Shown piece by piece: positions 13,170 through 52,620 of a stretch of 64,000 nt of DNA. The DNA comes from Candidatus Microgenomates bacterium (GTDB lineage Bacteria > Patescibacteriota > Microgenomatia > UBA8517): assembly GCA_049523135.1 (NCBI GenBank), contig JBEKNE010000001.1:651234-715233 (forward strand), in the 5' to 3' direction. The number at the start of each line of letters is the position of its first letter. Within the stretch, counting starts at the first letter, position 1. Below the pieces are notes generated by a model. The model searched no databases, had not been told where the DNA came from, and saw nothing but the letters and a program-made list of their open reading frames with translations. A program made the translations under genes and the position numbers.

Positions 13170-13442
13170 TCCAAGGCCACCCAGAAGTCCCGCTAAGCCC
13201 CCGCCCATATCCATCATCTTCTTTGCAGATTCTTTCTGTACGTCTTTCATTGCACTGTTTATCAAATCAGTTAATTCTTTTAAGTCTTCCTCGCCGCGTT
13301 TTATATAGCGGATTTTTTGGTCTCCTGTGACAGAAACTGTATAGCCGTGCTTCTCTGCAGTTTTAATAATCTTTTCAAGTTCTTTTTGAAGTTCACTCGC
13401 CTTACGGCGCATATTTGCAAGATCTTTTATTTGGTCAAACAT
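13164..13442 (-). CDS. ybaB: nucleoid-associated protein YbaB/EbfC
   Basis: 92 aa. Typical N-terminal MxxMxKQAQ-like and C-terminal GLPGLF-like tail (GLAGLLGGLGK). dnaX-ybaB synteny. Confidence 0.85.
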   Translation of the reverse strand: MFDQIKDLANMRRKASELQKELEKIIKTAEKHGYTVSVTGDQKIRYIKRGEEDLKELTDLINSAMKDVQKESAKKMMDMGGGLAGLLGGLGK

Positions 13443-36375: not shown

Positions 36376-36685
36376 TGTTTTCACAGATTGACTTTCATGG
36401 TAATATATATGTGACCCTGTCGAGAAAAGAATCGGTTTAATTTCCTGATCAATTTACATTTTATTGGGAGGGCGAAGTCCAACCAAAGCATTTTTGTTAA
36501 GGAAGGCAGCTCACCCACCTGGATTTTCCAGGAATGCTACCGGCTTTTGAGGCAGGGTCTTTTTTGTATCAGGCAGAATATCTCTATTTCACCTAGTCTT
36601 TGGCCTCATAATCACGTCTTCCAGTAAATCTTATACTTGTATCGTATCTAAACTGAGTTTGTCTGGAGTATATTTCTTAAGCGGG

Positions 36686-36768
36686 TGCCAAGGCCAGGAT
36701 TCGAACCTGGGAAGCCTTACGGCATCAGTTCTACAGACTGACGTAATTGTCCACTCTACCACCTTGGC
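36686..36768 (-). tRNA. tRNA-Tyr (anticodon GTA), long variable arm, no encoded CCA
   Basis: Manual fold: acceptor GCCAAGG/CCTTGGC, anticodon stem TCAGT/ACTGA, loop CTGTAGA, T-arm GGTTCGAATCC. Confidence 0.8.
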
Positions 36769-37373
36769 TAGTTTTTAAGTAAACTTGAAGATATTATACC
36801 AATATCAGTCATAATTTGCCTATGCAACTTCTTATCGGAATATCTAATATGTACAAGCCCAAATGGCATTTTGCCAATTTTCTCTATTTTAAAGTCCTTT
36901 CGGATATAGGGTTTAGAAAATTGCCCTTTGGGTACTTTTAATTTTTTCGACCAAAAATCAATTATTTTATTTACATCCTGATTTAAATAACAATACAAAT
37001 ATATTCTGAGCCTTTTTTCGGTAACTCTATAAATTTCCCTAAGCATTCTAATAAACAAACGAAGCATTTTTTCATCGCTATTCGCAAAATCAACGGTAAA
37101 CTTATTTGCTTTTGATCCTTCAGCCCAATAAAGCATCAAGCCTGCAATAAGAAGTTTTCTTTGATGGTTTGTAAATTTTGCCAATTTATCATAACTTAAA
37201 GAGCCTCTTTCGAATTGAATTTTAAGGGTCTGTGCGGGAGTTCTCCTTTTTATTTTATTTCTCCTCATAAAACTTATTACCCGCCAAACAGAAATATTAT
37301 ATTTCCTGGCTATTTCATTGGAACTTAAACCATTTTTGTTATACAGATCCGAAACAATCATTTTATCAAGCAT
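36768..37373 (-). CDS. DNA-binding protein with N-terminal HTH and a LAGLIDADG-like motif (possible homing-endonuclease-derived protein)
   Basis: HTH LSSNEIARKYNISVWRVISFMRR. Segment LLIAGLMLYWAEGSKANKFTVDF resembles LAGLIDADG plus following beta-strand. Stop codon abuts tRNA-Tyr. Confidence 0.4.
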   Translation of the reverse strand: MLDKMIVSDLYNKNGLSSNEIARKYNISVWRVISFMRRNKIKRRTPAQTLKIQFERGSLSYDKLAKFTNHQRKLLIAGLMLYWAEGSKANKFTVDFANSDEKMLRLFIRMLREIYRVTEKRLRIYLYCYLNQDVNKIIDFWSKKLKVPKGQFSKPYIRKDFKIEKIGKMPFGLVHIRYSDKKLHRQIMTDIGIISSSLLKN

Positions 37374-37461
37374 AGTAGATCAATAATATATTTGCCTTGA
37401 CGAATAATCAATACCCATGTCAATATCAAAATTAGGCTTAGTTTGATATAATTCATATTGC

Positions 37462-37533
37462 GCCGACGTAGCTCAGTGGTAGAGCGATGCTTTTGTAAAG
37501 CAAGGATCGGAGGTCCAAATCCTCCCGTCGGCT
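37462..37533 (+). tRNA. tRNA-Thr (anticodon TGT)
   Basis: Manual fold: acceptor GCCGACG/CGTCGGC, anticodon loop TTTGTAA, T-arm GGAGGTCCAAATCCTCC. Confidence 0.8.
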
Positions 37534-37547
37534 CACGAATAAATTTT

Positions 37548-38588
37548 ATGTGGACATCACTTTTCGATTACAATCTACCAAAAAATCTAATCGCTAACTC
37601 CCCTGCTAATCCCAGAGATAGTTCCAGACTTATGATAATTAACCGAAAAACTGATCAAATTTCCGAATATGTCTTTCGCGATATTACGAATATGTTAGGA
37701 AAAAATGATATCTTGGTTTTAAATAAGACTAAAGTTTTTCCAGCCAGGCTTATTTCCAAAAAAGTAACCGGCGGAAAAGTCGAAATTTTACTTCATAAAA
37801 ATCTGGACACGTATACATGGGAAGCACTAACCAGACCAGGGCTTAAAGCCGAACAAAAAATAGTTGCCGACGGAATTCTGGCGGAAACCATAAAAAGGGA
37901 CGGAGAACTTTCCATTTTGAAATTTAATTTGGATAGAAACAAACTGATCGAAAAACTCCAAAAAATTGGCCTGACTCCCCTTCCTCCTTATATTCATTCA
38001 AACGACTCCGAAAAAGATTTAAGGCATGAATATCAGACGATTTATGCAAAAACGGTCGGTTCCGCAGCCGCCCCGACAGCCGGATTCCATTTCACCAAAG
38101 AGCTTTTGGAAAGATTACAGAAAAAAGGGGTCCAAATCGAATATATTACGCTCCATGTCGGCCTCGGAACCTTTGCCCCCGTCAAAACAAAAACGCTCGA
38201 AGAGTTCAAAATCCACGAAGAGGAATTTTTTGTGGATAATAAAACTATCAATACAATAAAAGAAGCCAAATCCAAAGGCAAAAGAATAATTGCCGTAGGC
38301 ACCACATCTGCCCGTACGTTGGAAACCATCGCTTCAGGTAAGCCCTCCGGCTCAACCAATCTTTTTATTTATCCTCCCTACAAATTCAAAATTGTTGACG
38401 CTCTCATAACTAATTTTCATCTTCCGGAGTCAACCCTTTTAGCCCTAGTTTCGGCGTTTGTTTCCTTCCCAAATACGGATACCAAATTCAAAGATTTTGG
38501 TTCATCTTTAATGGGCAAGGCTTATCGAAAAGCTATTAAAAACAAGTTTCGTTTCTACTCTTTTGGTGATGCCTGCCTGATTATCTGA
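37548..38588 (+). CDS. queA: S-adenosylmethionine:tRNA ribosyltransferase-isomerase. Start moved to MWTSLFDYNLPK
   Basis: FDYxLPxxLIAxxPxxPRDxSRL QueA N-terminal signature. Track ORF 5' extension overlaps tRNA-Thr and is rejected. Confidence 0.85.
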   Translation: MWTSLFDYNLPKNLIANSPANPRDSSRLMIINRKTDQISEYVFRDITNMLGKNDILVLNKTKVFPARLISKKVTGGKVEILLHKNLDTYTWEALTRPGLKAEQKIVADGILAETIKRDGELSILKFNLDRNKLIEKLQKIGLTPLPPYIHSNDSEKDLRHEYQTIYAKTVGSAAAPTAGFHFTKELLERLQKKGVQIEYITLHVGLGTFAPVKTKTLEEFKIHEEEFFVDNKTINTIKEAKSKGKRIIAVGTTSARTLETIASGKPSGSTNLFIYPPYKFKIVDALITNFHLPESTLLALVSAFVSFPNTDTKFKDFGSSLMGKAYRKAIKNKFRFYSFGDACLII

Positions 38589-38606
38589 TATAATTAGCTT
38601 CATCAG

Positions 38607-38681
38607 GCCTGGGTAGCTCAGTGGTAGAGCACGTACTTGGTAAGTACGGGGTCGTGAGTTCAATCCTCACCTCAGGCTCCA
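38607..38681 (+). tRNA. tRNA-Thr (anticodon GGT) with encoded CCA
   Basis: Manual fold: acceptor GCCTGGG/CTCAGGC (one G-U), anticodon stem CGTAC/GTACG, loop TTGGTAA, T-arm GTGAGTTCAATCCTCAC, 3' TCCA. Confidence 0.85.
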
Positions 38682-38686
38682 GAATT

Positions 38687-39280
38687 ATGGAACAACACGA
38701 AATACCGGTTTTTAGAAAATCCGAAAAGCATGTGGGCCCCTATATAAACGCTGTTCTTAATCCACCTATAGGAGAATTCAATAATATGCTTCGCCAAGCC
38801 AAACACTCCATCTTAGAAATTGGCTGTGGAGAAAAACCAAGACTTTCGTGGAAATTGAGTTCTGAAGATTTATGGGTAGGCTGCGATCCTCTCTTAGACA
38901 CCAACAGAGTGCAAATAAAGTCACCTATACATTCTAATAAAGTGATTCTATTCTCCGATATCGCAGCTGATATACCGAAGTTTACACCCGACGTCTTATT
39001 GGCAGTCGCGCCCAATCAAAAAAACATAGCTGAAAATAAAATATTTAATGATGAATTGGAGAATTTTCTGAATCCTCATAAACATCAATTTTTTATAGTG
39101 GCACTAGACACCCGGACAATTGAATCCAGAGGCTACCAGCAAGCCGCATTAACAAAAATTGATAATTGGATGAACGAACATCATTTTAAGAGAGATGATG
39201 AAAATCCGGTTTTAAACAAATTCAGTCCCAACTCGGATGATCTGGGAAATTTAAGCCACCTTATGTGTTTTGCCAGTTAG
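38687..39280 (+). CDS. hypothetical protein, possibly SAM-dependent methyltransferase-like. Start moved to MEQHEIP
   Basis: ILEIGCGEKP resembles methyltransferase motif I. 5' ORF extension overlaps tRNA and is rejected. Confidence 0.35.
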   Translation: MEQHEIPVFRKSEKHVGPYINAVLNPPIGEFNNMLRQAKHSILEIGCGEKPRLSWKLSSEDLWVGCDPLLDTNRVQIKSPIHSNKVILFSDIAADIPKFTPDVLLAVAPNQKNIAENKIFNDELENFLNPHKHQFFIVALDTRTIESRGYQQAALTKIDNWMNEHHFKRDDENPVLNKFSPNSDDLGNLSHLMCFAS

Positions 39281-39325
39281 CTCCGCTTGCCTCTTCACTA
39301 CGCTCCGTGATAAAATATCAGCCAT

Positions 39326-39517
39326 ATGGCAAAAAAAGGCGCAAGAGAAGCTGTTATGTTGGTTTGTTCCGTTTGTAAAAATCAAAATTACATTACTGAA
39401 AGGAACAAAGTTAACATGGAGCTTAAAAACAAAAAGGGCTCAAAATTGGAGATCAAGAAATACTGTAAATTCTGCAGGAAAGTCCAGCTCCATAAGGAAA
39501 CCAGCAAGCTTAAGTAA
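39326..39517 (+). CDS. rpmG: 50S ribosomal protein L33 (zinc-ribbon type)
   Basis: CSVCKNQNYIT...KYCKFCRKVQLHKETSK matches Cys4 L33. Precedes tRNA-Trp/secE/nusG as in canonical synteny. Confidence 0.85.
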   Translation: MAKKGAREAVMLVCSVCKNQNYITERNKVNMELKNKKGSKLEIKKYCKFCRKVQLHKETSKLK

Positions 39518-39646
39518 AAACTTCGAGCACGGGAGAACAAAAATAAATTACTTCAAAAACATCCTTGCAAGGATAAGTAATCTTCATGTTTTTGATTGCG
39601 TATCTTATTTCTGCTCCCCCAGGTCGCATTGTGCTCATACTAACAC

Positions 39647-39877
39647 CTAAACATTAATCTGATTACCGTGGATTTTCGCGTGATTAGGGAAATGTCCCGG
39701 TGCATGGTTGTGTTTCAACTCGTCCACCAACTTAACGGTACCGGCCTTTGTATAAAAACCTGATTTCCCATTTAGGGTATCCAGTACTATATCACCGGGC
39801 TGGGGACCACACGCAGGTCCATTTCCCACACCTAAAAACACAAAACTGCCGTCTTGTTTCAATGTCCAACTGGCCAT
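39647..39877 (-). CDS. hypothetical small protein
   Basis: ORF only (MASWTLKQDGSFVFLGVGNG...). Gly/His-rich. Confidence 0.25.
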   Translation of the reverse strand: MASWTLKQDGSFVFLGVGNGPACGPQPGDIVLDTLNGKSGFYTKAGTVKLVDELKHNHAPGHFPNHAKIHGNQINV

Positions 39878-39984
39878 ATTTGTACGCCTCCACAATGTTA
39901 ATTTGCGACCTATAGTGGACTATATCAAAAAATACGCTATTTTTCAACTTTGAGGCAATCTGGGGTATAATACAAAGGTAATTT

Positions 39985-40055
39985 AGGGGTGTCGGTCAGT
40001 GGTAGGCCGCGAGTCTCCAAAACTTGCAACGTAGGTTCGATTCCTACCACCCCTG
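39985..40055 (+). tRNA. tRNA-Trp (anticodon CCA)
   Basis: Manual fold: acceptor AGGGGTG/CACCCCT, anticodon loop CTCCAAA, T-arm GTAGGTTCGATTCCTAC. TATAAT box about 14 nt upstream. Confidence 0.8.
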
Positions 40056-40064
40056 CAGAGGCAC

Positions 40065-40325
40065 TTACTGACTAGCGTATTTATGAAGAACCGAGGACGC
40101 AAGAGTTTGATAAGGAATCCCCTCTTCAGCTGCTTTAGCTCTTAAACGTGCTATAACTCTTTCGGAAAGTCTAATGTTTATGTTTTTGGTCTTGTTCAGA
40201 GTATTCTTAGCGATTTTTTCATAAAGTTTTTTCGCTTTCTTAAAATCTGAAACTGAGACAAACGTCCCCTTTTCAAAATCTTTCAAAATAGTTCTTTCAT
40301 CTTTTGTTAATTCGTAATATTTCAT
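40065..40325 (-). CDS. brnA: BrnA-type antitoxin (ribbon-helix-helix, COG3514-like)
   Basis: C-terminal ...IRLSERVIARLRAKAAEEGIPYQTLASSVLHKYA typical of BrnA. Overlaps toxin gene by 4 nt. Confidence 0.65.
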   Translation of the reverse strand: MKYYELTKDERTILKDFEKGTFVSVSDFKKAKKLYEKIAKNTLNKTKNINIRLSERVIARLRAKAAEEGIPYQTLASSVLHKYASQ

Positions 40326-40609
40326 TTTTTTCCACCTCCTTTAACTATATATTTTTTAGTTGCCTTTCGGCTTGGAATAATCGTTTTCAAAAACACTTTC
40401 TCCTCATCTTCAACAAAAGGTACTAAATAAACATAGTTGTTAATGTTTAGCACAAACATTTTTTGATTAGGATATTTCTTCTGATTTGGATGCTTAACTA
40501 TATCCAAAAGTCCACCAGATTCTATCGCTATATAAACTTCTTCAAAAGAGATATCCCGTTCAGCCTTAAGCAACCTATTTTTCTCTTTATTCCAATCGTA
40601 ATACTTCAC
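40322..40609 (-). CDS. brnT: BrnT-type ribonuclease toxin (DUF497/COG2929-like)
   Basis: YDWNKEKNRLLKAERDISFEE N-terminus (F-x-WD-x-x-K-x-x-N-x-x-KHG-like pattern), about 95 aa, upstream of RHH antitoxin. Confidence 0.65.
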   Translation of the reverse strand: MKYYDWNKEKNRLLKAERDISFEEVYIAIESGGLLDIVKHPNQKKYPNQKMFVLNINNYVYLVPFVEDEEKVFLKTIIPSRKATKKYIVKGGGKK

Positions 40610-40756
40610 TAGTAGTGATGTTATGACAAATAATATGATTTGTCAATAGTTAAAGTAGGCCTTAAAAATTCATTAATTCGACTCATATCAAACGAACATA
40701 TATTGTTCCAAACTGTACGAAAATTGGATACTAAGGCCTGTCACATAGTTAAGCTG

Positions 40757-41767
40757 TTAAGTCTTAATGATAGGGTCCGCTCCATCCAAATATATCAAAA
40801 TCTTGCTTATACCCCTTAGATCTCTAAGCTTCTCCAGCGAATATGTAACATTATTACGAACCTTATTTTCCGGAATATCATATTTATCCCCGATCTCACT
40901 ATACTTCCAGTGCCTCCCGTCGACTATTCCAATTCTATAAAGAAGCTTATCAATCGAAGAAAGTGAAATAGTTTCGCAAAGGACATCTCTAAGGAAATCT
41001 TTCAACTCTTTCTCCTCCAAAATATCCAAAGCGTCTTTCCCAGGGCCTTCAATACAATCCTCCAATACTTCATCAGGATTATCATCTTTGTTCCTCGGTT
41101 CATTTAACGATTTCTGACGCTTATTCGCCTGAAATGCCGCCCTTAAAGTATTCAATTGGATTCTCGAAAGACCAAGCTTTTTTTCCACTTCCGGAATCTC
41201 TGGAGTACGGGCCAATTTCTGTGTCAAAAACTTTTCGGCTTTCTTATAGTCAATAATTCTTTTGAACGAAGCGGGGGGTATAACGATATGATTCGCATTG
41301 TGGATTGCATTAATCATTTCACGGACGATCCAATATTCTATGTATGTAGAGACGTTGCATCCTTCATCAAGGTCATATTGGGCTAGTCCCTTTATCATTC
41401 CAACTACACCTTCGTTTAATAAATCGACATTGGGTAAATCGCACTTATAAAAAAGGTTATTTTTTTTTGCCAGACTAAATACAAAAAGCAAATTGTGGTT
41501 CACTAGTTCATTGAAAGCCAGATGGGATTCTCTATTTGTAAATCCAATTTTTACCTGTTCCGTGTGGGGATTTATTATTTCAGCTCCGGAAAACATCACC
41601 CGTGCAAGCTCCTTTTGTTCTTCCGCAGGAAGAGCGGGATAATTTTCGGCCTCACGGATCCATTCCTTAACCCCCATTTTGACCAAAGTCGGTTCAGTTT
41701 CTTTCATAAACAGTGAATTATAATACGGGAGAGTCCTATTTCGCCAGTTCGTATCTTTCGGAGGCAA
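40757..41767 (-). CDS. RNA polymerase sigma factor, sigma-70 family (regions 1.2, 2, 3, 4 recognisable). Possibly the principal sigma
   Basis: Region 2.3/2.4 YIEYWIVREMINAI, region 4.2 HTH EIGDKYDIPENKVRNNVTYSLEKLR. Confidence 0.8.
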   Translation of the reverse strand: MPPKDTNWRNRTLPYYNSLFMKETEPTLVKMGVKEWIREAENYPALPAEEQKELARVMFSGAEIINPHTEQVKIGFTNRESHLAFNELVNHNLLFVFSLAKKNNLFYKCDLPNVDLLNEGVVGMIKGLAQYDLDEGCNVSTYIEYWIVREMINAIHNANHIVIPPASFKRIIDYKKAEKFLTQKLARTPEIPEVEKKLGLSRIQLNTLRAAFQANKRQKSLNEPRNKDDNPDEVLEDCIEGPGKDALDILEEKELKDFLRDVLCETISLSSIDKLLYRIGIVDGRHWKYSEIGDKYDIPENKVRNNVTYSLEKLRDLRGISKILIYLDGADPIIKT

Positions 41768-42722
41768 GAGAAATAATTTTACTGATCAGATCTTTATAAC
41801 TCATTCCCGCAACCATTGCCGCACGGGGAAAATAGGAAATCTGATTCATATCAGGATTAATCCCCGGAAGTGTATTTATTTCGATAAAATAAAGAGTCCC
41901 ATCATTACTCAGCCGATAATCAATTCTGGCACAATCTCTGACATCCAAAAGTTTATAAATCTTTTTGGAAACATCCTCTATTTTATCCTTAAGTTTTTCA
42001 TCTATTTTTGCAGGGCAATCATAAGCAGTTTTTAGATCCTTTAACTTGTCTTCATAAAGCCACTTCAGTTCATAACCGGCAATTTTGTTCATTCCAGCAG
42101 GTAGAAAATCGAATTTTTGCTCTATAATTGGAAGAACCTGAATTTCCTTATTCCCAAGCACGCCAACAGTAAACTCACGTCCGTCGATATACTCCTCTAC
42201 CAAGACTTCTGTATCAAGCGCCTCTCTTAGCTCCTTAATCTTTTTGTCCAACTCTTCCTTGTTCCTGACGACACTATTATCCATTATCCCTTTACTTGAA
42301 CCTTCCTTATTCGGCTTCACAATTAATGGGAACGTGATTGAACCGGGAACATCCACTATTTCCGCCCCTTTTATAATTAACTTTGTAAACTCCTTATCAA
42401 GTTTTATTGCATTTGTGGTAGGACCCGAGTGAGTATAAGGAATTCCCAAAACTTCACAGAAAAGAGGAATTTGGCTTTCCCTTGCATCCCCCGTTAATCC
42501 TTCAGCAATATTAAAAACAAGGTCAATTTTCCCTTTCAAAGATTGAAGTGTATCGAAAGCATTTTCATTCGCTTCAACCAGTACCACCTCGTGTCCCAAA
42601 GACTCCAGGGTTTCTTTAATCTGATTGATTGTTTCGGGAGCATCGAACTCCGTATCTTTCTGCTTACTCGGATCCAAAGAAGGATCACTCCTTTTAACAT
42701 TGAAGGTAAAGGCAATTTTCAT
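41736..42722 (-). CDS. D-alanine--D-alanine ligase-family ATP-grasp enzyme (paralog 1)
   Basis: EVLGIPYTHSGP, LIVKPNKEGSSKGI, EEYIDGREFTVGVLG, FIEINTLPG. Ddl-like ATP-grasp motif set. Confidence 0.75.
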   Translation of the reverse strand: MKIAFTFNVKRSDPSLDPSKQKDTEFDAPETINQIKETLESLGHEVVLVEANENAFDTLQSLKGKIDLVFNIAEGLTGDARESQIPLFCEVLGIPYTHSGPTTNAIKLDKEFTKLIIKGAEIVDVPGSITFPLIVKPNKEGSSKGIMDNSVVRNKEELDKKIKELREALDTEVLVEEYIDGREFTVGVLGNKEIQVLPIIEQKFDFLPAGMNKIAGYELKWLYEDKLKDLKTAYDCPAKIDEKLKDKIEDVSKKIYKLLDVRDCARIDYRLSNDGTLYFIEINTLPGINPDMNQISYFPRAAMVAGMSYKDLISKIISLASERYELAK

Positions 42723-42820
42723 CTATGTAGTGTGGTGTGGAAAAAGGGATTGCGATTTTGAGGAGAAAATTACCATTATGAGTTAGATTATATACCCCTC
42801 CGAAAATTTGTTAACAAGTA

Positions 42821-43501
42821 CTATTTCCTGATCATCCCCAACTTCTTAGGCCAGGTTTCGCTTTTCGGAGTTATGACAAACATTACCCGGTTATCTATGA
42901 GGCTTCTACCGCCAATAATATTCTCATCCCACCATCTTTTCTCAAAAAGCCTGATGGGAAATCTCCTGTCCACCCCGTTGTAGCGGAATATGCCATTGAA
43001 ATACGGATCCGCGATTCTTACATAGCCTGTCTTTTTATCTACACCCGTGACCACTCCGTAATGCCCGCTGTCCCCATCTTCGTTTTCATAGAAAACTCCC
43101 TGCCACTCAACCCCAACGGGAGATTTAAACGTATGCACCGCTCTCCAAAGGTCATGGATGGTAGCGTCGCGCTTTTCCCAAAAATAATATTCTTTCTTTC
43201 CCAAAAATGAGGTTGCACGGGTCAAGTCTTTGACATTTAGACCGTATTCTCTGACTTTGGTTTGTGCCCTGAGCGATTTAATCATACTTTTCTGGCTTAC
43301 CTTAACGCCAAAGAAAGAAAAAAGCATTTCTTCTACAGCCGGACCGCAGGCATAGATTGAAACTTGTTTTACCCTACGCATTTCAGGGAAGGGCTTGCCG
43401 AAGAGCTTATCCGCAAGTTCCCATAAACGTTTCAGAAATCTTCTCGCAATCGGGTTTTTTTCAAGTTCCATAATTTGCCCAATTATACGGGCGGAAGCCA
43501 A
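42821..43501 (-). CDS. papain-fold cysteine peptidase-like protein (C39/BtrH_N-like)
   Basis: Candidate catalytic Cys in SIYACGPAVEEMLFSFFG and His in DSGHYGVVTGVD, ordering as in C39-like peptidases. Flanked by two ATP-grasp genes. Confidence 0.45.
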   Translation of the reverse strand: MASARIIGQIMELEKNPIARRFLKRLWELADKLFGKPFPEMRRVKQVSIYACGPAVEEMLFSFFGVKVSQKSMIKSLRAQTKVREYGLNVKDLTRATSFLGKKEYYFWEKRDATIHDLWRAVHTFKSPVGVEWQGVFYENEDGDSGHYGVVTGVDKKTGYVRIADPYFNGIFRYNGVDRRFPIRLFEKRWWDENIIGGRSLIDNRVMFVITPKSETWPKKLGMIRK

Positions 43502-43507
43502 GTTTGT

Positions 43508-44620
43508 CTACTGCAATCCTTTGGTGTACTTGGAAAGGAGGCTGGAGACTATCTCCGGAAACTCAACTCCGTACATTGCCATTACCTCCGTCATGGGAAG
43601 TCCCATATCCGGACCAAAGGCTGTATTGGGGTTGCTGTCGGTAAAGTACGGGGTCGTTGTTTCTTCATCTACCCTAATGTCAAACTTTGCGTAATCGTTA
43701 TGCTGAAGTCCGCCAAAAGCTCTTACGGCAAGCTTGGTAATCTCATAGCGGAGATCATCCTTAACGGGAATATATTTATAAGCCTTAGAATCGTCATAAG
43801 ACTCAAAACTTGTAAAGAAATATTTACCGTCAGCCTTTTTTCTAAAGACCTTTTGTCCCATAAATACGTGCCTTTTGCTTCCGTCGTCAAAGACCACAAC
43901 CGTAATTTCAGGCCCGCCTATAAACTTCTCAACAACAACCGGAACGTGGTATGTTGAAATCATTTTATTGGACCGAAGCATTGCGGCTCTGAAGGTCTCT
44001 TTAACAGCATGATTATTTATTCCGACGCTTCCCCCACCCTCGTTAAGTTTAACGATAAGAGGAAGCCCCAAGTCTTCATCAATTGTCGTTCCGGCACGTC
44101 TGATAAATTGGAACGGAGGAGTCGGAATGTCATAGGCCATAAGAAGTCTCTTGGTTAAATTTCTGTTATTGCCAATGATAAGACCTTCCATTCCGGCTCC
44201 GGTATAAGGAATTCCGGCCAGTTCCAGTGCCGCCGGAACCGAAGGCTGGAGTTGATCGCGGCCTTTTAAGGTATCCACCAAATTAACAACCAGGTCGGGT
44301 TTATCAACAAGCAAATTCGTATAAAAATACTGATCTCCTGGAAGAGTCCTAACCTGAATTCCAAGTTTTCGAATTTCTTCCGAAACCTCAACCGCTCTCT
44401 CCTCTACTTCAACTTCCGCCTCATAAGCGGACTGGGTGGCAAAGTGCTCCCTCTGGACACTGCTGTAAGCAACTACCACCAACCTAAACTTTTTTAAACC
44501 GTCCTTATCAACAGCTAATTTAATTTTTCCTTTGGGGGATGTTTTTTTTACCAGGGCTTCATCTTCGCTTTTTGAAGTGGGCATATACTCATAGTACCAA
44601 ATAATCCTTCTCTGATACAA
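43508..44620 (-). CDS. D-alanine--D-alanine ligase-family ATP-grasp enzyme (paralog 2, N-terminally extended). True start may be Met at 44584
   Basis: ELAGIPYTGAG, LIVKLNEGGGSVGI, EKFIGGPEITVVVF, ATP-grasp C-domain. Confidence 0.75.
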   Translation of the reverse strand: MYQRRIIWYYEYMPTSKSEDEALVKKTSPKGKIKLAVDKDGLKKFRLVVVAYSSVQREHFATQSAYEAEVEVEERAVEVSEEIRKLGIQVRTLPGDQYFYTNLLVDKPDLVVNLVDTLKGRDQLQPSVPAALELAGIPYTGAGMEGLIIGNNRNLTKRLLMAYDIPTPPFQFIRRAGTTIDEDLGLPLIVKLNEGGGSVGINNHAVKETFRAAMLRSNKMISTYHVPVVVEKFIGGPEITVVVFDDGSKRHVFMGQKVFRKKADGKYFFTSFESYDDSKAYKYIPVKDDLRYEITKLAVRAFGGLQHNDYAKFDIRVDEETTTPYFTDSNPNTAFGPDMGLPMTEVMAMYGVEFPEIVSSLLSKYTKGLQ

Positions 44621-44629
44621 TACGCTTAA

Positions 44630-45283
44630 ATGACTAATTCAAAAATTGGAATGCTTTTGGTTATAACCGGCGCTTCCGGAACCGGAAAAGATTCTGTTGC
44701 AAATGAGATCCTGAAACATCCTGCTCTTGCAGAATTAAATTTAAAAAGGTTGATTACCTGTGCCGACAGGCCACCTCGCCCGGGAGAAACCGAAGGAGTC
44801 GATTATTATTTTGTGACACCAAAGGAGCTTGATGAAATGTATAAAAAGGAACAGCTAGTGGAAAAACCCCAAACCACAGGAACATCAAGAAAAGGAACTC
44901 CAAGAAAAGAATTTACCGCAATTTTGAAAGGAGAAAAAAGACTTTGGAGAATTGATCCATTCCTGGCATCAAAGGTCGCCACTGGGATTTTTTTTGAAGA
45001 GCAATTTGAAGGTAGAGAGAAAGAAGATCTCAAATCACTAACTACAGTTGTATGTGTTGCCTCCCCCAAAGAACAAATCGAGGGTAGACGGAAATTGCGC
45101 GACAGGGAAAAATATAACACAAAAGAATACAAATTAAGGGATCTTCAGGAAAAACCAAATCTGGATGTTTTACAAAAAGAGAGTTTACTTGTGCAAAATC
45201 TCAATGGACAACTGGGGGAAACTGTAAAAGAGGTTGCAAACATAATACTTAAAAATTATGCCAAAGGTAAAGAAAGAGGCTAA
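44630..45283 (+). CDS. gmk: guanylate kinase
   Basis: P-loop ITGASGTGKDS, CADRPPRPGETEGVDYYFV (TTRxPRxGExDGxDYxFV) motif. Confidence 0.8.
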   Translation: MTNSKIGMLLVITGASGTGKDSVANEILKHPALAELNLKRLITCADRPPRPGETEGVDYYFVTPKELDEMYKKEQLVEKPQTTGTSRKGTPRKEFTAILKGEKRLWRIDPFLASKVATGIFFEEQFEGREKEDLKSLTTVVCVASPKEQIEGRRKLRDREKYNTKEYKLRDLQEKPNLDVLQKESLLVQNLNGQLGETVKEVANIILKNYAKGKERG

Positions 45284-45692
45284 AGTTTTGGTCGGTGGAT
45301 GTTTTGATATCCTCCACTTCGGCCATATCAGTTTTTTAAAAAAGGCCAAGTCTTTAGGAAACTATCTGGTGGTTGCTTTGGAATCAGACAAAAATGTTAA
45401 AAGGCTCAAAGGAACCGATCGTCCGATTCATTCCCAATCCCAAAGACATGAGATACTTATATCTCTAGAATTTGTAGATGAAGTAATAAATCTGCCTGAC
45501 AATATGAGTGATACAGATTATTTGGAGCTGGTTAAAAACATCAGACCGGCTATTATCGCGGTAACTCAAGGAGATCCAATTCTTGCCAAGAAACAAAAAC
45601 AGGCAAAAGCGGTCAGAGCCAAAGTTGTCGAAATTGCAAATATAAAAGTTCCTTCAACCTCCAAAATTGCAAAACTCCTAAAGCTGGAATAA
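45258..45692 (+). CDS. cytidylyltransferase-like nucleotidyltransferase (HldE domain II / TagD family)
   Basis: GGCFDILHFGHISFL (H-x-G-H), SDKNVKRLKGTDRPI, C-terminal ISTS-like motif. Confidence 0.65.
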   Translation: MPKVKKEAKVLVGGCFDILHFGHISFLKKAKSLGNYLVVALESDKNVKRLKGTDRPIHSQSQRHEILISLEFVDEVINLPDNMSDTDYLELVKNIRPAIIAVTQGDPILAKKQKQAKAVRAKVVEIANIKVPSTSKIAKLLKLE

Positions 45693-45757
45693 ACAAATAA
45701 TTAAGAAGCTTCCCGCTTGCGGTTTTTCCGAATCTGATATAATCTTGATTATTCAAT

Positions 45758-46768
45758 ATGGCGGATCAAAAGACAGCTTTAATCTACGGAGTTTCCTCGC
45801 AGGACGGTTCCTACATGGCCGATCTTCTTCTCGAAAAAGGCTATAAAGTTGTAGGAACAATCAGAAGAAGCACCACCAACCGAAAGGAAAATATAGATCA
45901 TCTTCTTGGAAAAATTAAAATTGAACTGGCCGACCTAACCGACTACGAATCTATTAGCCGTGCCATAAGAACCCATAAACCCGATGAAATTTATAACTTT
46001 GCCGCTCAGTCGGTTCCGGCTGACAGCTGGGCACAACCCTTTTATACGGGAGAAGTAACAGGAATGGGAGTTGTCAGAATTCTGGAGTCAATTAAAAATA
46101 TCTCCCCTTCCTCTAAATTTTATCAGGCTTCAAGCCGGGAAATTTTCGGAAACATCGCAAAAATAAAGGCGAATGAAAATACTCCAATTGACCCAAATAA
46201 TCCTTACGGAATCGCAAAGGCTTATGCACACTTGATGGTTAGGTGTTACCGCGAGTCTTACGGAATGTTTGCCGTTGGCGGAATTCTTTTCAATCACGAA
46301 AGTCCGAGGAGAGGCCTCCATTTTGTCTCAAGAAAAGTTACCGCAGCTGTTGCTTGCATCAAAAACCATGCCAAAAATATTCCGCTTGATGAACTGGGGG
46401 AACCTCTGGTTGACGCCGAGGGAAAAGTCCACATGGGAAACCTTGATGCCAAACGCGACTGGGGATATGCCAAAGAATATATGGAAGCAGTCTGGAAAAT
46501 ATTGCAACAGGACAAACCTGAAGATTATGTTATTGCAACCGATACTTCTTATTCAATTAAAGATCTTTGCAAAATTGCTTTCGAACACGTAGGTCTAAAT
46601 TGGGAAGACTATATAGTAAGCGATAAAAAGTTCTTCAGACCTACAGAGATTAAGGAATCAACGGGCGACTTCTCAAAAGCAAAAAGAAATCTTGGTTGGG
46701 AGCCAAAAACAGATTTTAAAACTTTGATCGAAATGATGGTTGACGCCGACTTGAAAAAATTTAAATAA
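45758..46768 (+). CDS. gmd: GDP-mannose 4,6-dehydratase
   Basis: N-terminal Rossmann GVSSQDGSYMADLLLEKGYKV, SDR catalytic YxxxK, GMD-specific N-H-E-S-P-R-R motif (FNHESPRRG). Confidence 0.9.
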   Translation: MADQKTALIYGVSSQDGSYMADLLLEKGYKVVGTIRRSTTNRKENIDHLLGKIKIELADLTDYESISRAIRTHKPDEIYNFAAQSVPADSWAQPFYTGEVTGMGVVRILESIKNISPSSKFYQASSREIFGNIAKIKANENTPIDPNNPYGIAKAYAHLMVRCYRESYGMFAVGGILFNHESPRRGLHFVSRKVTAAVACIKNHAKNIPLDELGEPLVDAEGKVHMGNLDAKRDWGYAKEYMEAVWKILQQDKPEDYVIATDTSYSIKDLCKIAFEHVGLNWEDYIVSDKKFFRPTEIKESTGDFSKAKRNLGWEPKTDFKTLIEMMVDADLKKFK

Positions 46769-46778
46769 TCCCCAGTCA

Positions 46779-47726
46779 ATGCAAAAAGTCTTAATTACAG
46801 GGGTAGCAGGCTTCGTAGGACACTACCTTACAGAAAGTTTACTTGAGGATTATCGAGTAACAGGAACCGATAAAGCTCCCCTTTCTCCTAATTCCAAAAT
46901 AGATTACTTTCCGGGTGATATTCTGGACAGAAAATTTTTAGGTGATTTAATCTCCAAGCAAAAGCCCGAAGTAATTTTTCACCTCGCCGCCAAAAGCCAA
47001 ACATGGAGTCGGAATGTTGAAGAAGTCTTCAAGATAAACATGCTTGGAACGATTAATCTTTACGAAAGCATCCTCGAAGCAAGGGAAAATTCCGATTATA
47101 ACCCCAAAATAATTTTTATAAGTTCATCGGAAGTCTACGGAAACACAACCGACCCTAAAAACATTACCGAGGATTCCCCTCTTTTCCCGATCAAATTTTA
47201 TTCGGCAAGCAAAGTTGCCGCAGACAGACTCAGTTACAGCTACAGCCAAAATGAAAAATTAAATATTCTCATTCTAAGACCTTTTACTCACACGGGTCCG
47301 GGGCAGCAAAAGGGATTTTTTGTTCCCGACATTTGTTCCCAAATAGCAGAAGTCGAAAAAGGTGATAAAAACGAATTGCTTGTAGGAAATCTCGATTCCG
47401 TACGGGATTATCTTGATGTGCGGGATGTGGTAGCCGGATATAAAACAATAATAAATAAAGATTGGGTTCCCGGGGAAAGCTTTAATATCTGCTCAGGACA
47501 CGGCATAAAAATCCGGGCAATGCTTGAAATTCTGCTTAAGCTTTCAGATAAAAAATTTGTGACAAAAGAGGATCCGTCAAAAATCAGAGAATCGGATGCC
47601 CCGGTCTACATCGGAAACAATAGAAAATTCCGTGAAGCAACCGACTGGAAACCTCAAATTTCGATTGAAAAAACCCTCAAAGACACGCTTAACTACTGGA
47701 GAAATTTACCCCCTAGTAAAAAATAA
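46779..47726 (+). CDS. NAD-dependent epimerase/dehydratase (extended SDR). Likely GDP-4-keto-6-deoxyhexose reductase or epimerase partnering gmd
   Basis: ITGVAGFVGHYL Rossmann motif, YSASK (YxxxK). Directly downstream of gmd. Confidence 0.7.
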   Translation: MQKVLITGVAGFVGHYLTESLLEDYRVTGTDKAPLSPNSKIDYFPGDILDRKFLGDLISKQKPEVIFHLAAKSQTWSRNVEEVFKINMLGTINLYESILEARENSDYNPKIIFISSSEVYGNTTDPKNITEDSPLFPIKFYSASKVAADRLSYSYSQNEKLNILILRPFTHTGPGQQKGFFVPDICSQIAEVEKGDKNELLVGNLDSVRDYLDVRDVVAGYKTIINKDWVPGESFNICSGHGIKIRAMLEILLKLSDKKFVTKEDPSKIRESDAPVYIGNNRKFREATDWKPQISIEKTLKDTLNYWRNLPPSKK

Positions 47727-47802
47727 CAATTCAATTATTGGAACTAATCTGTTAAAATAGCGTTGCTGAAGAAAAAACTGAAAGGAGGCGATTTTATATA
47801 AT

Positions 47803-47997
47803 ATGTTCATATTAAAAAAGAAAAAGGGTGAAAGCGATGATAAGCTTATTGCCCGTTTTCGCAAAAAAACCATTGTTGAAGGTGTTATGCAGGAATACCG
47901 CGACCGCGAACGCTATAAAAAGCCTTCCGAAAAAAGGAAAGAGGATAAATACCGCATCGCCCACTCTATCGAGCTTGAGAAGAAGAGGAATTATTAA
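47803..47997 (+). CDS. rpsU: 30S ribosomal protein S21
   Basis: 64 aa basic protein. LIARFRKKTIVEGVMQEYRDRERYKKPSEKRK matches S21 core. AAAGGAGG RBS upstream. Confidence 0.7.
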   Translation: MFILKKKKGESDDKLIARFRKKTIVEGVMQEYRDRERYKKPSEKRKEDKYRIAHSIELEKKRNY

Positions 47998-48646
47998 TCC
48001 AAGTTTCGACAAATTGCTTCCTGTGCTGCCGGGTTGAACCATATTTTTTGATTGCTTCCTGATGTTGTTTCGTGCCGTAACCCTTGTTTTTCGCCCACTT
48101 GTACTTTCTGTATTTCGGGTTTTTATTTAGGTTGGTCATTAGGCTGTCTCTATAAACTTTGGCAATAATTGAGGCTGCTGCAATTGAGATAGATTTCGTG
48201 TCTCCTTTAATAATCGGCTTCTGATTTTTCCGTCTCAAACCTTTAACGTAAGGAATATAAAAAGCATCTATAAGTAAATAGTCAATTCTTTCATTGCAGT
48301 TTTTAATAGCTTTACGAAAAGCTATCTCAGTAGCCTTTTTAATTCCAAATTTATTAATTTCCCCAACACCCGCTTTCCCAATTCCATAGCAGTAAGCATT
48401 TCTTTTTATCCAAAATGAAGCTAATTCCCTTTGTCTGGGAGTTAATTGTTTTGAATCATTAATAATTATTTTATTTTGTAATTTATTGAAAATTGTAAAT
48501 TGATAATTGTTAATCGGAACGAAGGCAACAGCCGCAGCGACCACCGGTCCTGCAAAACATCCTCTTCCAACTTCATCAACTCCGGCAATAAATTTGTAAC
48601 CTTGTTTTTGAAGTTTTTTCTCAAAAGAAAAATCAGGAAGAGTCAT
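47966..48646 (-). CDS. rnhB: ribonuclease HII
   Basis: IAGVDEVGRGCFAGPVV catalytic DEVGRG motif. Confidence 0.9.
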   Translation of the reverse strand: MTLPDFSFEKKLQKQGYKFIAGVDEVGRGCFAGPVVAAAVAFVPINNYQFTIFNKLQNKIIINDSKQLTPRQRELASFWIKRNAYCYGIGKAGVGEINKFGIKKATEIAFRKAIKNCNERIDYLLIDAFYIPYVKGLRRKNQKPIIKGDTKSISIAAASIIAKVYRDSLMTNLNKNPKYRKYKWAKNKGYGTKQHQEAIKKYGSTRQHRKQFVETWINNSSSSQAR

Positions 48647-49116
48647 TTGTGTTCGGGGCTGGGCCAGTGATACAGTATAGCGTCTCGCAAATCTTTATTC
48701 TTTTTTTCAATCTCCGCCTTGGATGAACTTGCAAGATTAAGTGCTTTTTTCACTGCCGCATTCCTTGATAACAAATCATTTGCTATCTTGTCAGCACTAA
48801 CACCTTGTGCCATAAGAGCCGGCATAAGTCTATCTGCCACCTCAGAAGGCTGTTCTGAAGGATATCTTGATCTGACATCTTTCAAAAGTTCTATTTCCTT
48901 AGCCTGACCTTCAGTTCCTTCAAATTCATCAGGAAAAGCCCTGGTAACAACAGAAACCAAGTCATCAAGAATCTCGGCGGGGACAAGGGTATCCTTTACT
49001 GGATTCCGAAATCGAGCGTCGGGTAAATTACCACCCTGGGAATATATTAAAATTTCCCCCTTTCTATTGGTTGTAACAATTGGTTTTCCAAAGGGTGGTC
49101 TTTCTTTGCTCTCCAT
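48643..49116 (-). CDS. hypothetical protein
   Basis: ORF coupled to rnhB (4-nt overlap). No motif recognised. Confidence 0.4.
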   Translation of the reverse strand: MESKERPPFGKPIVTTNRKGEILIYSQGGNLPDARFRNPVKDTLVPAEILDDLVSVVTRAFPDEFEGTEGQAKEIELLKDVRSRYPSEQPSEVADRLMPALMAQGVSADKIANDLLSRNAAVKKALNLASSSKAEIEKKNKDLRDAILYHWPSPEHK

Positions 49117-49188
49117 AAGACGATTATATCAAACCATGGCAATTCCACTTCCATTTGGCTAAATAATCTGTTACAATTTACGCCTAGT

Positions 49189-49374
49189 ATGAAACCTGTC
49201 GTTACTTTCTTTTCGGAAGTAAGGAGTGAACTTTCCAAGGTTACCTGGCCAAAAAGAGATGAGGTTGTCAGGCTCACTCTTATAGTCTTTGTTGTTTCAG
49301 GAGTTGTAGGCTTATACGTAGGGGGGCTCGATTACCTGTTTACCAAGATATTAACGACAATTTTAACCAAATAG
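49189..49374 (+). CDS. secE: preprotein translocase subunit SecE
   Basis: 61 aa. VTWPKRDEV motif followed by single TM. Immediately upstream of nusG. Confidence 0.8.
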   Translation: MKPVVTFFSEVRSELSKVTWPKRDEVVRLTLIVFVVSGVVGLYVGGLDYLFTKILTTILTK

Positions 49375-49377
49375 AAT

Positions 49378-49989
49378 ATGGATGAAGATACAAACCAAGT
49401 CGCAGAGCGCGGCATTGGACACAAAAAAATACAAGGGCATATTGTCCTTTCCCAAACTGAAGATCCCAAGGCAAAATGGTATGTTGTTCATACCTCCTCA
49501 GGACATGAGGCCCGTGTCATGGACACCTTAAAACAAAGAGTCGAAACCATGAACCTCGAGGGCAGAGTTTTCGAAATGCTCGTCCCTACTCAGGACAGGG
49601 TTATCATAAGAAGCGGAAAAAAGGCCACAATTAAGGAAAAAATCTTCCCGGGGTATCTTCTTGTCAAAATGATTTTGGATGATCCGACTTGGTTGGCAGT
49701 TAGGACTACCGCCGGAATTACAGGCTTTGTTGGCGCCGGCAATAACCCGACACCTCTTTCCGAAACGGAAGTATCAAACATTCAAAAGTTTATCGCCTCA
49801 CCAGCTCCGAGATTTAAGACAAAGTTTTCTGTCGGCGAAGCAGTGAAAATTACCGATGGGCCTTTTAGCGATTTTCTTGGAACAATCCATGAAATGGATG
49901 AGGAAAAAGGCAAAGTTAAAGTTCTTGTTTCAATCTTCGGCCGCGAAACTCCGGTTGAACTCGATTTCCTCCAAATACAGAAAGTCTGA
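49378..49989 (+). CDS. nusG: transcription termination/antitermination factor NusG
   Basis: KWYVVHTSSGHE NGN domain, C-terminal KOW (FSVGEAVKITDGPFSDFLGTI). Confidence 0.9.
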   Translation: MDEDTNQVAERGIGHKKIQGHIVLSQTEDPKAKWYVVHTSSGHEARVMDTLKQRVETMNLEGRVFEMLVPTQDRVIIRSGKKATIKEKIFPGYLLVKMILDDPTWLAVRTTAGITGFVGAGNNPTPLSETEVSNIQKFIASPAPRFKTKFSVGEAVKITDGPFSDFLGTIHEMDEEKGKVKVLVSIFGRETPVELDFLQIQKV

Positions 49990-50062: not shown

Positions 50063-50269
50063 TTAATCAGGATTAAATTTTTCCTGACTTTCCTCACAAA
50101 CACCCCTGCGATCACTCCGAAAATGATGTACTCCTTCAAATATTGAAATAACAAAACAAAAACAGGCTGCTATTGAAAGAGTGTTATTTCCGGTAATTCC
50201 ACCAACTAAAGCCAAAATCAAAAAGGCCGGAAACCAAATACAATCGAGAAACTCAGTAAATTTTTTCAT
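50063..50269 (-). CDS. hypothetical small membrane protein
   Basis: 68 aa with two hydrophobic helices. Confidence 0.3.
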   Translation of the reverse strand: MKKFTEFLDCIWFPAFLILALVGGITGNNTLSIAACFCFVISIFEGVHHFRSDRRGVCEESQEKFNPD

Positions 50270-50293
50270 TATATTTTCTTCTCCTTTGAATCT

Positions 50294-50713
50294 TTATTGA
50301 TTCATCCCGTTGTCTTGCCCGACTTTCATAAAATAATACATCAAGCTATTGATGCTAGAGGGTTGATCTTTTCCCCAGGCGAACAAAATTTGTTCGCTCA
50401 ACCGCTTCAAGTAGTCTTGTGTATCCGGCCAGCCATAACTTTGGTAATTAGACTTTACCAGATCAATACAATAGTCGGAGTTTTTATCCAAATTTACATC
50501 TGTCTTCCCAAACGCAATTTCAATTCCGTCATTACAAACTTGCGTAATCGCTTCTTGAACATTGGGCGGAATCTCAACAGAATTTGTGGGAAGAATGGTT
50601 GGTGTCGGTTTTTGAGTTATTGCCTGATTAACTATAATGAATCCTTTCACAACTATAAAAACAAACAACAAGACAAAAAGGGCTCCTCCTAAAATATAAC
50701 CGATGCTTCTCAT
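50294..50713 (-). CDS. hypothetical secreted/membrane-anchored protein
   Basis: N-terminal TM/signal, Pro/Thr linker, two Cys. Confidence 0.4.
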   Translation of the reverse strand: MRSIGYILGGALFVLLFVFIVVKGFIIVNQAITQKPTPTILPTNSVEIPPNVQEAITQVCNDGIEIAFGKTDVNLDKNSDYCIDLVKSNYQSYGWPDTQDYLKRLSEQILFAWGKDQPSSINSLMYYFMKVGQDNGMNQ

Positions 50714-52198: not shown

Positions 52199-52620
52199 TT
52201 TGCAAATAAGCATAAATTGTTGTTAAATAAAACCCAATGACATTAGAAAACATCCAAAAACGAAATTTCCAGTTAAGTATTCTTGAAGCCAAAGAAAAAC
52301 TCGGCGAACTGACTGAAGAACAAAAAGCTCAACTGGAATCTTTACGCGAATCGGAACAACTAAGACATGCGGGCGTATCAGCCGGGGCTTTGATAGAGCC
52401 GACTGTTTACGGCGAAGGAATATCAGGGACTCCTGAATCAGACAGACTGCAAAATTTAAAACTTGAACATAAAAGAGCTACAAGGCAAGATAAACGTAGT
52501 AGCCGCGGGGGCTCTACTGGTTGACTTAGCCTGCCAATTATTAGATAATACCCATGTCCTAAGAAAGCTCGCATTCCGAGAGGATACAAGTCAAGCCGAG
52601 GCAAAAAGCGATAATTTTAT

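Follow-up and report, generated by a model that had tools for sequence, protein, structure and literature searches.

Both rpmG and the gene for tRNA-Trp are assigned to the secE operon within the conserved tufB / secE-nusG-rplKAJL operon cluster of bacteria (Brandis, 2021; PMC8046335). In a 64,000-nucleotide stretch of the genome of a Candidatus Microgenomates bacterium (GCA_049523135.1, contig JBEKNE010000001.1, positions 651,234 to 715,233; the whole stretch is called the window here, and its own coordinates are used throughout), tRNA-Trp and secE are separated by 9,132 bp (40057–49188) with 13 genes inside, beginning with a candidate brnT/brnA toxin-antitoxin (TA) pair at the 3' end of the tRNA gene. 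The locus raises the question whether a block of nine kilobases was inserted into the array, as proposed in an earlier reading based only on the sequence, or whether the separation is the inherited gene order of this lineage. The comparison with related genomes makes it highly likely that the interval is inherited chromosome and not an island, that the contiguity of the array was lost early in the Candidatus Woesebacteria, and that the interval was remodelled piecemeal, with brnTA as a recent arrival.

Gene order in related species

The anchors of the canonical array are present in the window. On the left, rpmG (ribosomal protein L33; 39326–39517, plus strand; PF00471, 54 bits) precedes tRNA-Trp(CCA) (39985–40056, plus strand; ARAGORN; Rfam RF00005, 60.8 bits), as it does in relatives; on the right, secE (49189–49374, plus strand; PF00584, 70 bits) is followed by nusG (49378–49989, plus strand; PF02357). 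The 9-kb separation noticed in the sequence-only reading was borne out by ARAGORN, Rfam, and Pfam, and every gene that it had listed in the interval was recovered at the family level with Pfam and NCBIfam.

To collect related loci, one genome for each GTDB species was scanned with NusG as the anchor, which yielded 77 loci with NusG proteins 63–91% identical to that of the window (L numbers are used here for these and for further loci outside the set); each locus extended up to 10 kb on either side of the anchor, window proteins were mapped onto it by tblastn, and tRNA genes were located by ARAGORN. The canonical arrangement, with tRNA-Trp directly upstream of secE, was found in none of the 77 loci, where the two genes were never adjacent, and an empty site between them occurred in none of the 50 informative loci. 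The distance from tRNA-Trp to the downstream secE was 2,633–9,414 bp, with a median of 6,056 bp, in 24 of the 77 loci; another 26 loci, each with 9 kb or more of sequence upstream of secE, contained no tRNA-Trp in that sequence. As many as 66 of 68 loci have the ribosomal protein gene rpsU upstream of secE, in most cases no more than ~1 kb away. In L081, the most distant locus (NusG 64% identical), 5.8 kb between tRNA-Trp and secE contain ordinary genes, whose products are a GH1 glycosidase, an EamA transporter, a class A penicillin-binding protein, and an ASCH protein. The slot immediately 3' of tRNA-Trp differs in almost every species examined, and is occupied by genes for NUDIX, DUF218, and UDG proteins, a serine hydrolase, a second guanylate kinase, pyrF, ribA, or unknown proteins. 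The relatives share the separated arrangement, and the possibility of fixed synteny or lineage-specific rearrangement, which had been named beside the insertion, is the one that these loci bear out.

A further variant of the array was observed in L070 (CP055308.1, a complete Woesebacteria genome), where rpmG is followed directly by rplK-rplA-rplJ-rplL, while rpsU-rnhB-secE-nusG are located ~7 kb further on and tRNA-Trp just after nusG. Many of the GTDB representatives (L008, L011, L013, L018, and others) show clear Woesebacteria synteny and NusG identities of up to ~91%, but have record titles such as "uncultured Gammaproteobacteria bacterium" and "Alphaproteobacteria bacterium", which seem to be incorrect.

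Layers of different age within the interval

The genes of the interval differ widely in their distribution, counted for each gene over those loci that held enough upstream DNA to be eligible. The most widespread are rpsU (47803–47997, plus strand; PF01165), present in 66 of 68 eligible loci, and rnhB (47966–48646, minus strand; PF01351), present in 47 of 69; they are followed by the short-chain dehydrogenase/reductase (SDR) sugar-nucleotide gene (37/61), the small nucleotidyltransferase gene (ctp; 45258–45692, plus strand; 19/57), the second ATP-grasp gene (grasp2; 43508–44620, minus strand; 17/53), the C39-like peptidase gene (42821–43501, minus strand; 13/53), and the guanylate-kinase-like gene (gmk; 44630–45283, plus strand; 11/54). 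Rarer still are a fast-evolving gene for a hypothetical 157-aa protein with no match in Pfam or NCBIfam (48643–49116, minus strand; 5/71), the Ddl-like ATP-grasp gene (grasp1; 41736–42722, minus strand; 4/52), and the SDR epimerase/reductase gene (46779–47726, plus strand; 2/65). Sporadic presence among relatives, as it would be expected of island genes, is limited to the sigma-70 family gene (1/51, at 25% identity only) and to brnT and brnA (0/48). The two ATP-grasp genes, the C39-like gene, gmk, ctp, and the reductase gene were assigned with Pfam and NCBIfam; the scores of gmk and of the GDP-mannose 4,6-dehydratase-like gene (gmd; 45758–46768, plus strand; Pfam and NCBIfam) fall below the NCBIfam equivalog cut-offs, and their assignment holds at the family level.

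The block is layered by age: rpsU and rnhB are clade-wide, the sugar-nucleotide genes and the ATP-grasp/C39/ATP-grasp trio belong to sub-clades, and the sigma gene and brnTA are restricted to the lineage of the window. The unequal depth of these genes, together with the clade-wide gap, indicates that the interval is an old break of the canonical array; it has a conserved core near secE and a fast-turnover end near the tRNA. Within the sub-clade layer, the plus-strand pair of gmd and reductase is common only to L020, L079, L097, and the window, and most relatives have a different SDR gene on the minus strand in its place. Homologs of the hypothetical 157-aa protein, 29–42% identical, were found at the same position in L009, L010, L016, L024, L026, and L095.

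In the closest relatives, a gene for a major facilitator superfamily (MFS) transporter of 412–423 aa is located between the nucleotidyltransferase gene and the SDR or gmd gene (L079, 4249–5514; L097, 4598–5869; also L007, L009, L010, and L018); the window has no such gene at the corresponding position (45692–45758). A 37-nt direct repeat (47722–47758 and 49141–49177; 70% identical, with the shared core AATCTGTTA[AC]AAT) has one copy just upstream of rpsU and one just upstream of secE, and is possibly a shared promoter motif.

Composition and island marks

The comparison of composition took in 69 non-overlapping open reading frames (ORFs) of the window with 100 aa or more, 10 of them block genes and 59 from elsewhere. 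The block was indistinguishable from its flanks in GC content (0.402 vs. 0.400, p = 0.97), in GC content at third codon positions (GC3; 0.372 vs. 0.362, p = 0.77), and in leave-one-out codon typicality (p = 0.75); low GC content (0.31–0.33) was confined to brnT and brnA, both of which are short. Pfam searches detected no integrase or recombinase domain in any of the 13 block proteins or in the flank proteins, nor an integrase in those slot genes of relatives that were scanned. Probes of 27 and 17 nt from the tRNA-Trp 3' end, with up to three mismatches allowed, found no copy in the 64 kb apart from the tRNA itself, in agreement with the earlier observation that integrase and direct repeat were both lacking. 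A general repeat scan of 39300–49400 returned nothing relevant to an attachment (att) repeat, Rfam searches of the block and of the variable zone of L097 returned tRNAs only, and PADLOC returned for the block proteins just a generic sigma-domain match to MzaA. The same gene order in relatives and the flank-like composition both argue against a recent insertion, and the proposal of an inserted nine-kilobase block, taken as one event, finds no support.

The brnTA cassette and the sigma-70 family gene

The TA pair next to the tRNA has to be considered separately. The brnA-like gene (40065–40325, minus strand), whose stop codon is located 8 nt from the tRNA-Trp 3' end, encodes a ribbon-helix-helix (CopG) antitoxin with matches to PF12441 (32.6 bits, cut-off 28) and PF14384 (27.4 bits, cut-off 26.1). 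The brnT-like toxin gene (40322–40609, minus strand) lies upstream of it and overlaps it by 4 nt; its match to PF04365 (27.2 bits, E = 4.8e-6) remains below the gathering score of 34.5, and a precomputed match to the same family is carried by many BrnT homologs. An AlphaFold2 model of the BrnT candidate (pLDDT 89.3) resembles TA toxins of the RelE/YafQ fold; in Foldseek the top match was 7vd7_A (TM 0.64, probability 1.00), followed by YafQ, RelE, and HP0894, all with E-values above 1e-3, and sequence and profile searches of the PDB with BrnT gave no match. TA activity is predicted from these similarities. A palindrome read in the sequence upstream of brnT (TGACAAAT-N6-ATTTGTCA, 40624–40645) is kept in L097 and L098, and is probably the operator.

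Antitoxin, toxin, and putative operator form a unit (40053–40650, minus strand) that shares 95.3% nucleotide identity over 599 bp with its counterpart in L097 (blastn). This sister lineage has the same gene order from tRNA-Tyr to rplK, without the sigma gene, and carries 3.2 kb of small genes between tRNA-Trp and brnA that include a YafQ-like TA pair. The syntenic neighbors of the cassette are only 68–79% identical between the window and L097 throughout (rpmG 75%, ATP-grasp/C39/ATP-grasp trio 71%, gmd to rnhB 77%, secE-nusG 79%), and the tract of high identity ends on one side a few bases from the tRNA end and on the other side just past the palindrome. Since the cassette is so much more similar than its flanks, brnTA appears to have been exchanged recently; from this comparison of sequences we conclude that it is in all likelihood a discrete mobile cassette that moved between lineages. 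The clear signature of recent horizontal exchange is limited to these ~0.6 kb; the earlier suggestion that a TA module at the tRNA marks an island boundary holds for the cassette, and fails for the 9-kb block.

In related species, brnTA was absent from all 48 loci, among the 77, that had enough upstream DNA. It was found in L098 (Woesebacteria GWA1_41_8), where the cassette occupies the same slot with 78% nucleotide identity, next to a HicAB pair, and in L103, where it is also located downstream of tRNA-Trp, in reversed orientation. More distant BrnT homologs (68–79% amino acid identity) occur in unrelated contexts in other genomes of the Candidate Phyla Radiation (CPR), and frequently have other tRNA genes close by. 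In the CPR the family is very common: among 7,990 database matches, the 120 best are 66–100% identical and include proteins of Parcubacteria and Portnoybacteria. A search of plasmids with the cassette gave one 114-nt match, to a Calothrix plasmid, which is not informative. Two of the distant contexts are rich in tRNA genes: L106 (8001–10863) has a BrnTA homolog with six tRNA-Ser/Arg genes within 2.3 kb, next to smpB, and L104 (8001–11489) has one with tRNA-Ile and tRNA-Cys near a HEPN/MNT pair.

The neighbor of the cassette, a sigma-70 family gene (40757–41767, minus strand; start at 41707 according to gene callers), was recognized by Sigma70_r2 (region 2; 30.7 bits, cut-off 24) and by the superfamily model TIGR02937 (51.8 bits, cut-off 42.9), while region 3 (22.7 vs. 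a cut-off of 25.3) and region 4 (18.8 vs. 24.1) remained below their cut-offs. No relatives of more than 31% identity were found beyond its own cluster, either in a word-indexed search of 5.8 billion proteins or when 1.84 billion representatives were searched exhaustively with HMMER. The gene is absent at the corresponding position in L097, and the same slot in L036 holds another sigma-70 gene, 25% identical and unrelated-looking. It is an orphan restricted to the lineage of the window; its composition is typical of the genome, and it perhaps arrived recently beside brnTA.

A conserved small ORF downstream of tRNA-Trp

Between the stop codon of the sigma gene and the brnT operator lies a copy of a ~90-nt repeat (40657–40743, minus strand), which belongs to a family of 24 unique copies collected by nhmmer and hmmsearch. 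The repeat corresponds to a small ORF of ~35 codons with the consensus MQALVxxLRTIWHEISSFDxEKIQxFLNPQP and a variable tail. Genomes carry one to four co-oriented copies: the variable zone of L097 has four (9834–9926, 11368–11460, 12733–12825, and 13301–13393), L059 (4124–4210 and 6311–6400) and L103 (3999–4084 and 5588–5675) have two each, and the window has one; others are located in L008 (3350–3438), L010 (1229–1317), L029, L041, and L072, and in 17 metagenome contigs (L108–L124) located by a 20-base pattern. Where tRNA-Trp is present on the contig, the element is always found 0.3–5.4 kb downstream, co-oriented with tRNA-Trp; its coding signature is on the strand opposite to the tRNA. The conserved frame has one stop codon vs. 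16–39 in other frames, column entropy shows a three-base periodicity (permutation p = 0.002), and the synonymous/non-synonymous ratio is 0.80 vs. 0.13–0.38 in the other antisense frames. Of the 24 unique copies, 13 have an ATG or TTG immediately before the conserved Q, and several copies show a GAGG motif upstream. In 15 copies a co-directional ORF begins −4 to 107 nt past the stop codon (within 51 nt in 14 of the 15); the genes that follow are mutually unrelated (BrnT, DUF218, dCMP deaminase, HD, RsgA, and several unknowns), and L008 has a NUDIX gene after a copy with an internal stop. In the window, the start before Q has been lost (ATG-TGA-CAG), and from this sequence the copy is probably degenerate.

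Four other identities of the repeat were considered, of which the first three were rejected. A decayed fragment of the tRNA-Trp 3' end, or att relic, does not agree with the coding signature in the antisense frame, and the repeat and the tRNA have only the words CCAAA, GTTCGA, and GGCCTGC in common, and these only with indels. An integron attC site would require core sites and an integrase, neither of which was present, and a C-terminal gene fragment does not agree with the ATG or TTG and the GAGG right before Q in 13 of 24 copies. A precursor of a ribosomally synthesized and post-translationally modified peptide (RiPP) that serves the ATP-grasp/C39 trio is not supported, since co-occurrence is weak: by our own tally, the small ORF is present in 4 of 9 trio-positive slots vs. 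2 of ~17 trio-negative slots.

No member of the family and no longer homolog was found in Pfam, NCBIfam, Rfam, viral contigs, or phage records; the family appears to be undescribed, and is the sole item of this analysis that might be new. It could encode a small protein or a leader for translational coupling. It could also provide portable homology for the exchange of cargo, an idea that arises because the tract of 95% identity ends at its edge. That the tRNA-Trp-proximal end is a new type of cassette zone of the Woesebacteria, in which a module of Shine-Dalgarno (SD) motif, start codon, and small ORF precedes unrelated cargo by 0–50 nt as a portable leader or supplies homology for integrase-free swaps, is a speculative and rather doubtful extension.

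Weighing the explanations

The observed layers suggest a history for the Candidatus Woesebacteria (Microgenomates, CPR) in which the contiguity of rpmG, tRNA-Trp, and secE-nusG would have been lost before the sampled species diverged, and the interval would afterwards have been filled and remodelled piecemeal with contents of different ages. A first layer would consist of rpsU, with rnhB, beside secE in nearly all species, and a second one of the nucleotidyltransferase gene, the guanylate-kinase-like gene, the SDR sugar-nucleotide gene, and the ATP-grasp/C39/ATP-grasp trio in sub-clades. In a third, the gmd-plus-reductase pair would have taken the place of a different SDR gene in a few close relatives; in a fourth, quick gene turnover at the tRNA-proximal end would have left the window lineage with an orphan sigma-70 gene and the ~600-bp brnT/brnA cassette. 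The most likely route of cassette exchange would be recombination, rather than integrase-mediated insertion at the tRNA. As a caveat, several points weigh against this history: the ancestral adjacency of tRNA-Trp and secE is taken from the general bacterial pattern (PMC8046335), and the sampled relatives are all Woesebacteria; the loci span 10 kb per side, so that tRNA-Trp was not placed in 26 of them; NusG identity is a proxy for phylogeny only; and four or more lineages (the window, L097, L098, and L103) have brnTA in the same slot, a pattern that could reflect ancient residence with gene conversion and many losses in place of repeated transfer. The route by which the cassette was exchanged is one that we infer.

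Transfer RNA genes are classic targets of islands, and the TA pair abuts the 3' end of tRNA-Trp; both would fit a single ancient insertion of ~9 kb, or a tRNA-Trp island with decayed integrase and att sites that was later domesticated. Such an event would also fit the contiguity of the canonical array in many bacteria (PMC8046335), but it does not explain that the phylogenetic depth of the interval genes ranges from 66/68 to 0/48, that the gap length varies from 2.6 to >9.4 kb, and that the most conserved members are the housekeeping genes rpsU and rnhB; with neither an integrase nor a tRNA 3' repeat, and with the composition of the flanks, an origin of this kind is very improbable. The brnTA cassette, for its part, could owe its 95% identity in the window and L097 to vertical descent under very strong purifying selection, or to local gene conversion, in place of horizontal exchange; its slot between tRNA-Trp and an ATP-grasp gene is homologous in both genomes, and L098 and L103 have brnTA in the same slot. 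The identity, however, is one of nucleotides and extends over the non-coding operator region, whereas the highly constrained rpsU and nusG genes, whose proteins are 96% and 89% identical, reach only 77–79% in DNA; it drops sharply at both cassette borders, and the cassette is missing from the 48 species loci in which it could have been seen. Vertical descent or conversion is, on this evidence, an unlikely source of the similarity. An assembly or binning artefact, with a chimeric contig joined at the tRNA, has to be considered for metagenome-assembled material, yet at least 10 independent contigs, drawn from JGI, ENA, and Logan samples, cross the tRNA-Trp/brnTA/sigma/ATP-grasp and rpsU/rnhB/secE junctions with identical gene order, and the arrangement recurs in contigs of the window's own species from several samples. 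The arrangement is therefore not a product of assembly, and since the synteny is also common to related species, a chimera can be set aside as exceedingly improbable.

Inherited chromosome with an early loss of contiguity is an ordinary outcome for gene-order evolution, and a new example in the CPR. A TA pair by a tRNA in a broken "universal" operon cluster can mimic an island and yet be fixed synteny; for annotators of CPR genomes, adjacency alone is no ground for calling islands. The loci document a class-level CPR lineage without tRNA-Trp/secE contiguity, in which the gap would be a long-lived site of gene turnover, and the sharply bounded 600-bp brnTA appears to be a clean case of recent exchange between divergent CPR bacteria with reduced genomes. 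The conserved and unannotated small-ORF family may merit separate study.

Flanking regions of the window

The flanks show interruptions of their own. Upstream, tRNA-Tyr (36684–36768, minus strand), tRNA-Thr(UGU) (37462–37534), and tRNA-Thr(GGU) (38607–38681) were identified by ARAGORN and Rfam; the tRNA-Thr/Tyr/Thr set (37458–39280) is not followed by tuf, and a protein of 219 aa with no assigned function precedes rpmG. A queA-like gene is located between the two tRNA-Thr genes, in the same place as in L013, L017, L018, L021, and L097. The stop codon of a 201-aa ORF (36768–37373, minus strand) without a Pfam match abuts tRNA-Tyr; this ORF has the lowest GC content in the neighborhood (0.305, z = −2.9), and is kept beside tRNA-Tyr in L023 (65%) and L097 (68%), with weaker conservation in L058 and L121.

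Downstream, two ORFs of 68 and 139 aa on the minus strand (50063–50713) separate nusG from rplK, and a 95-aa ORF (52237–52524) separates rplA from rplJ; homologs of these three ORFs were found in none of the 77 related loci. The distance from nusG to rplK ranges from about 0.6 to 4 kb across relatives, which indicates that in this lineage even the ribosomal cluster is interrupted. Directly after rplL, a second ATP-grasp cluster (53769–~60000, minus strand), conserved in relatives (L001, L095, and L096), encodes RimK-like ligases, an ATPgrasp_ST protein, a 7TM_transglut protein, and an ABC transporter; the RimK-like ligases are fused in the window (613 aa) and form two separate proteins in relatives.

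Comparison with known systems

The interval shares with tRNA-associated islands a TA module and an orphan regulator immediately 3' of a tRNA gene, and a content at this position that varies among relatives; it differs from them in that integrase, att direct repeat, and compositional deviation are lacking, and in that most of the interval is conserved and partly of housekeeping function. The cassette follows the BrnT/BrnA prototype of Brucella abortus in its gene order with the toxin gene first, in the 4-nt overlap, in the upstream palindrome, in the CopG/BrnA ribbon-helix-helix domain of the antitoxin, and in the RelE/YafQ-like fold of the toxin model; in contrast to the prototype, the candidate toxin scores lower than the Pfam threshold for BrnT, matches none of the solved structures by sequence, and belongs to a CPR-wide subfamily. 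The variable zone of relatives such as L097, in which several co-oriented small genes, two TA pairs among them, are each set apart by the ~90-nt repeat, resembles the cassette arrays of chromosomal integrons; unlike an attC hairpin, the repeat consists of a short coding sequence that has an SD motif and a start codon, R' and R'' core sites are lacking, and an IntI-type integrase was found in none of the loci examined. A further counterpart is the canonical cluster itself, whose order and orientation the window retains from tRNA-Tyr and the two tRNA-Thr genes over rpmG, tRNA-Trp, secE, and nusG to rplK, rplA, rplJ, and rplL. It departs from this cluster in the absence of tuf, in queA between the two tRNA-Thr genes, in the lineage-specific ORFs between nusG and rplK and between rplA and rplJ, and in the 9.1 kb from tRNA-Trp to secE, a break of contiguity that is fixed across an entire class-level CPR lineage.

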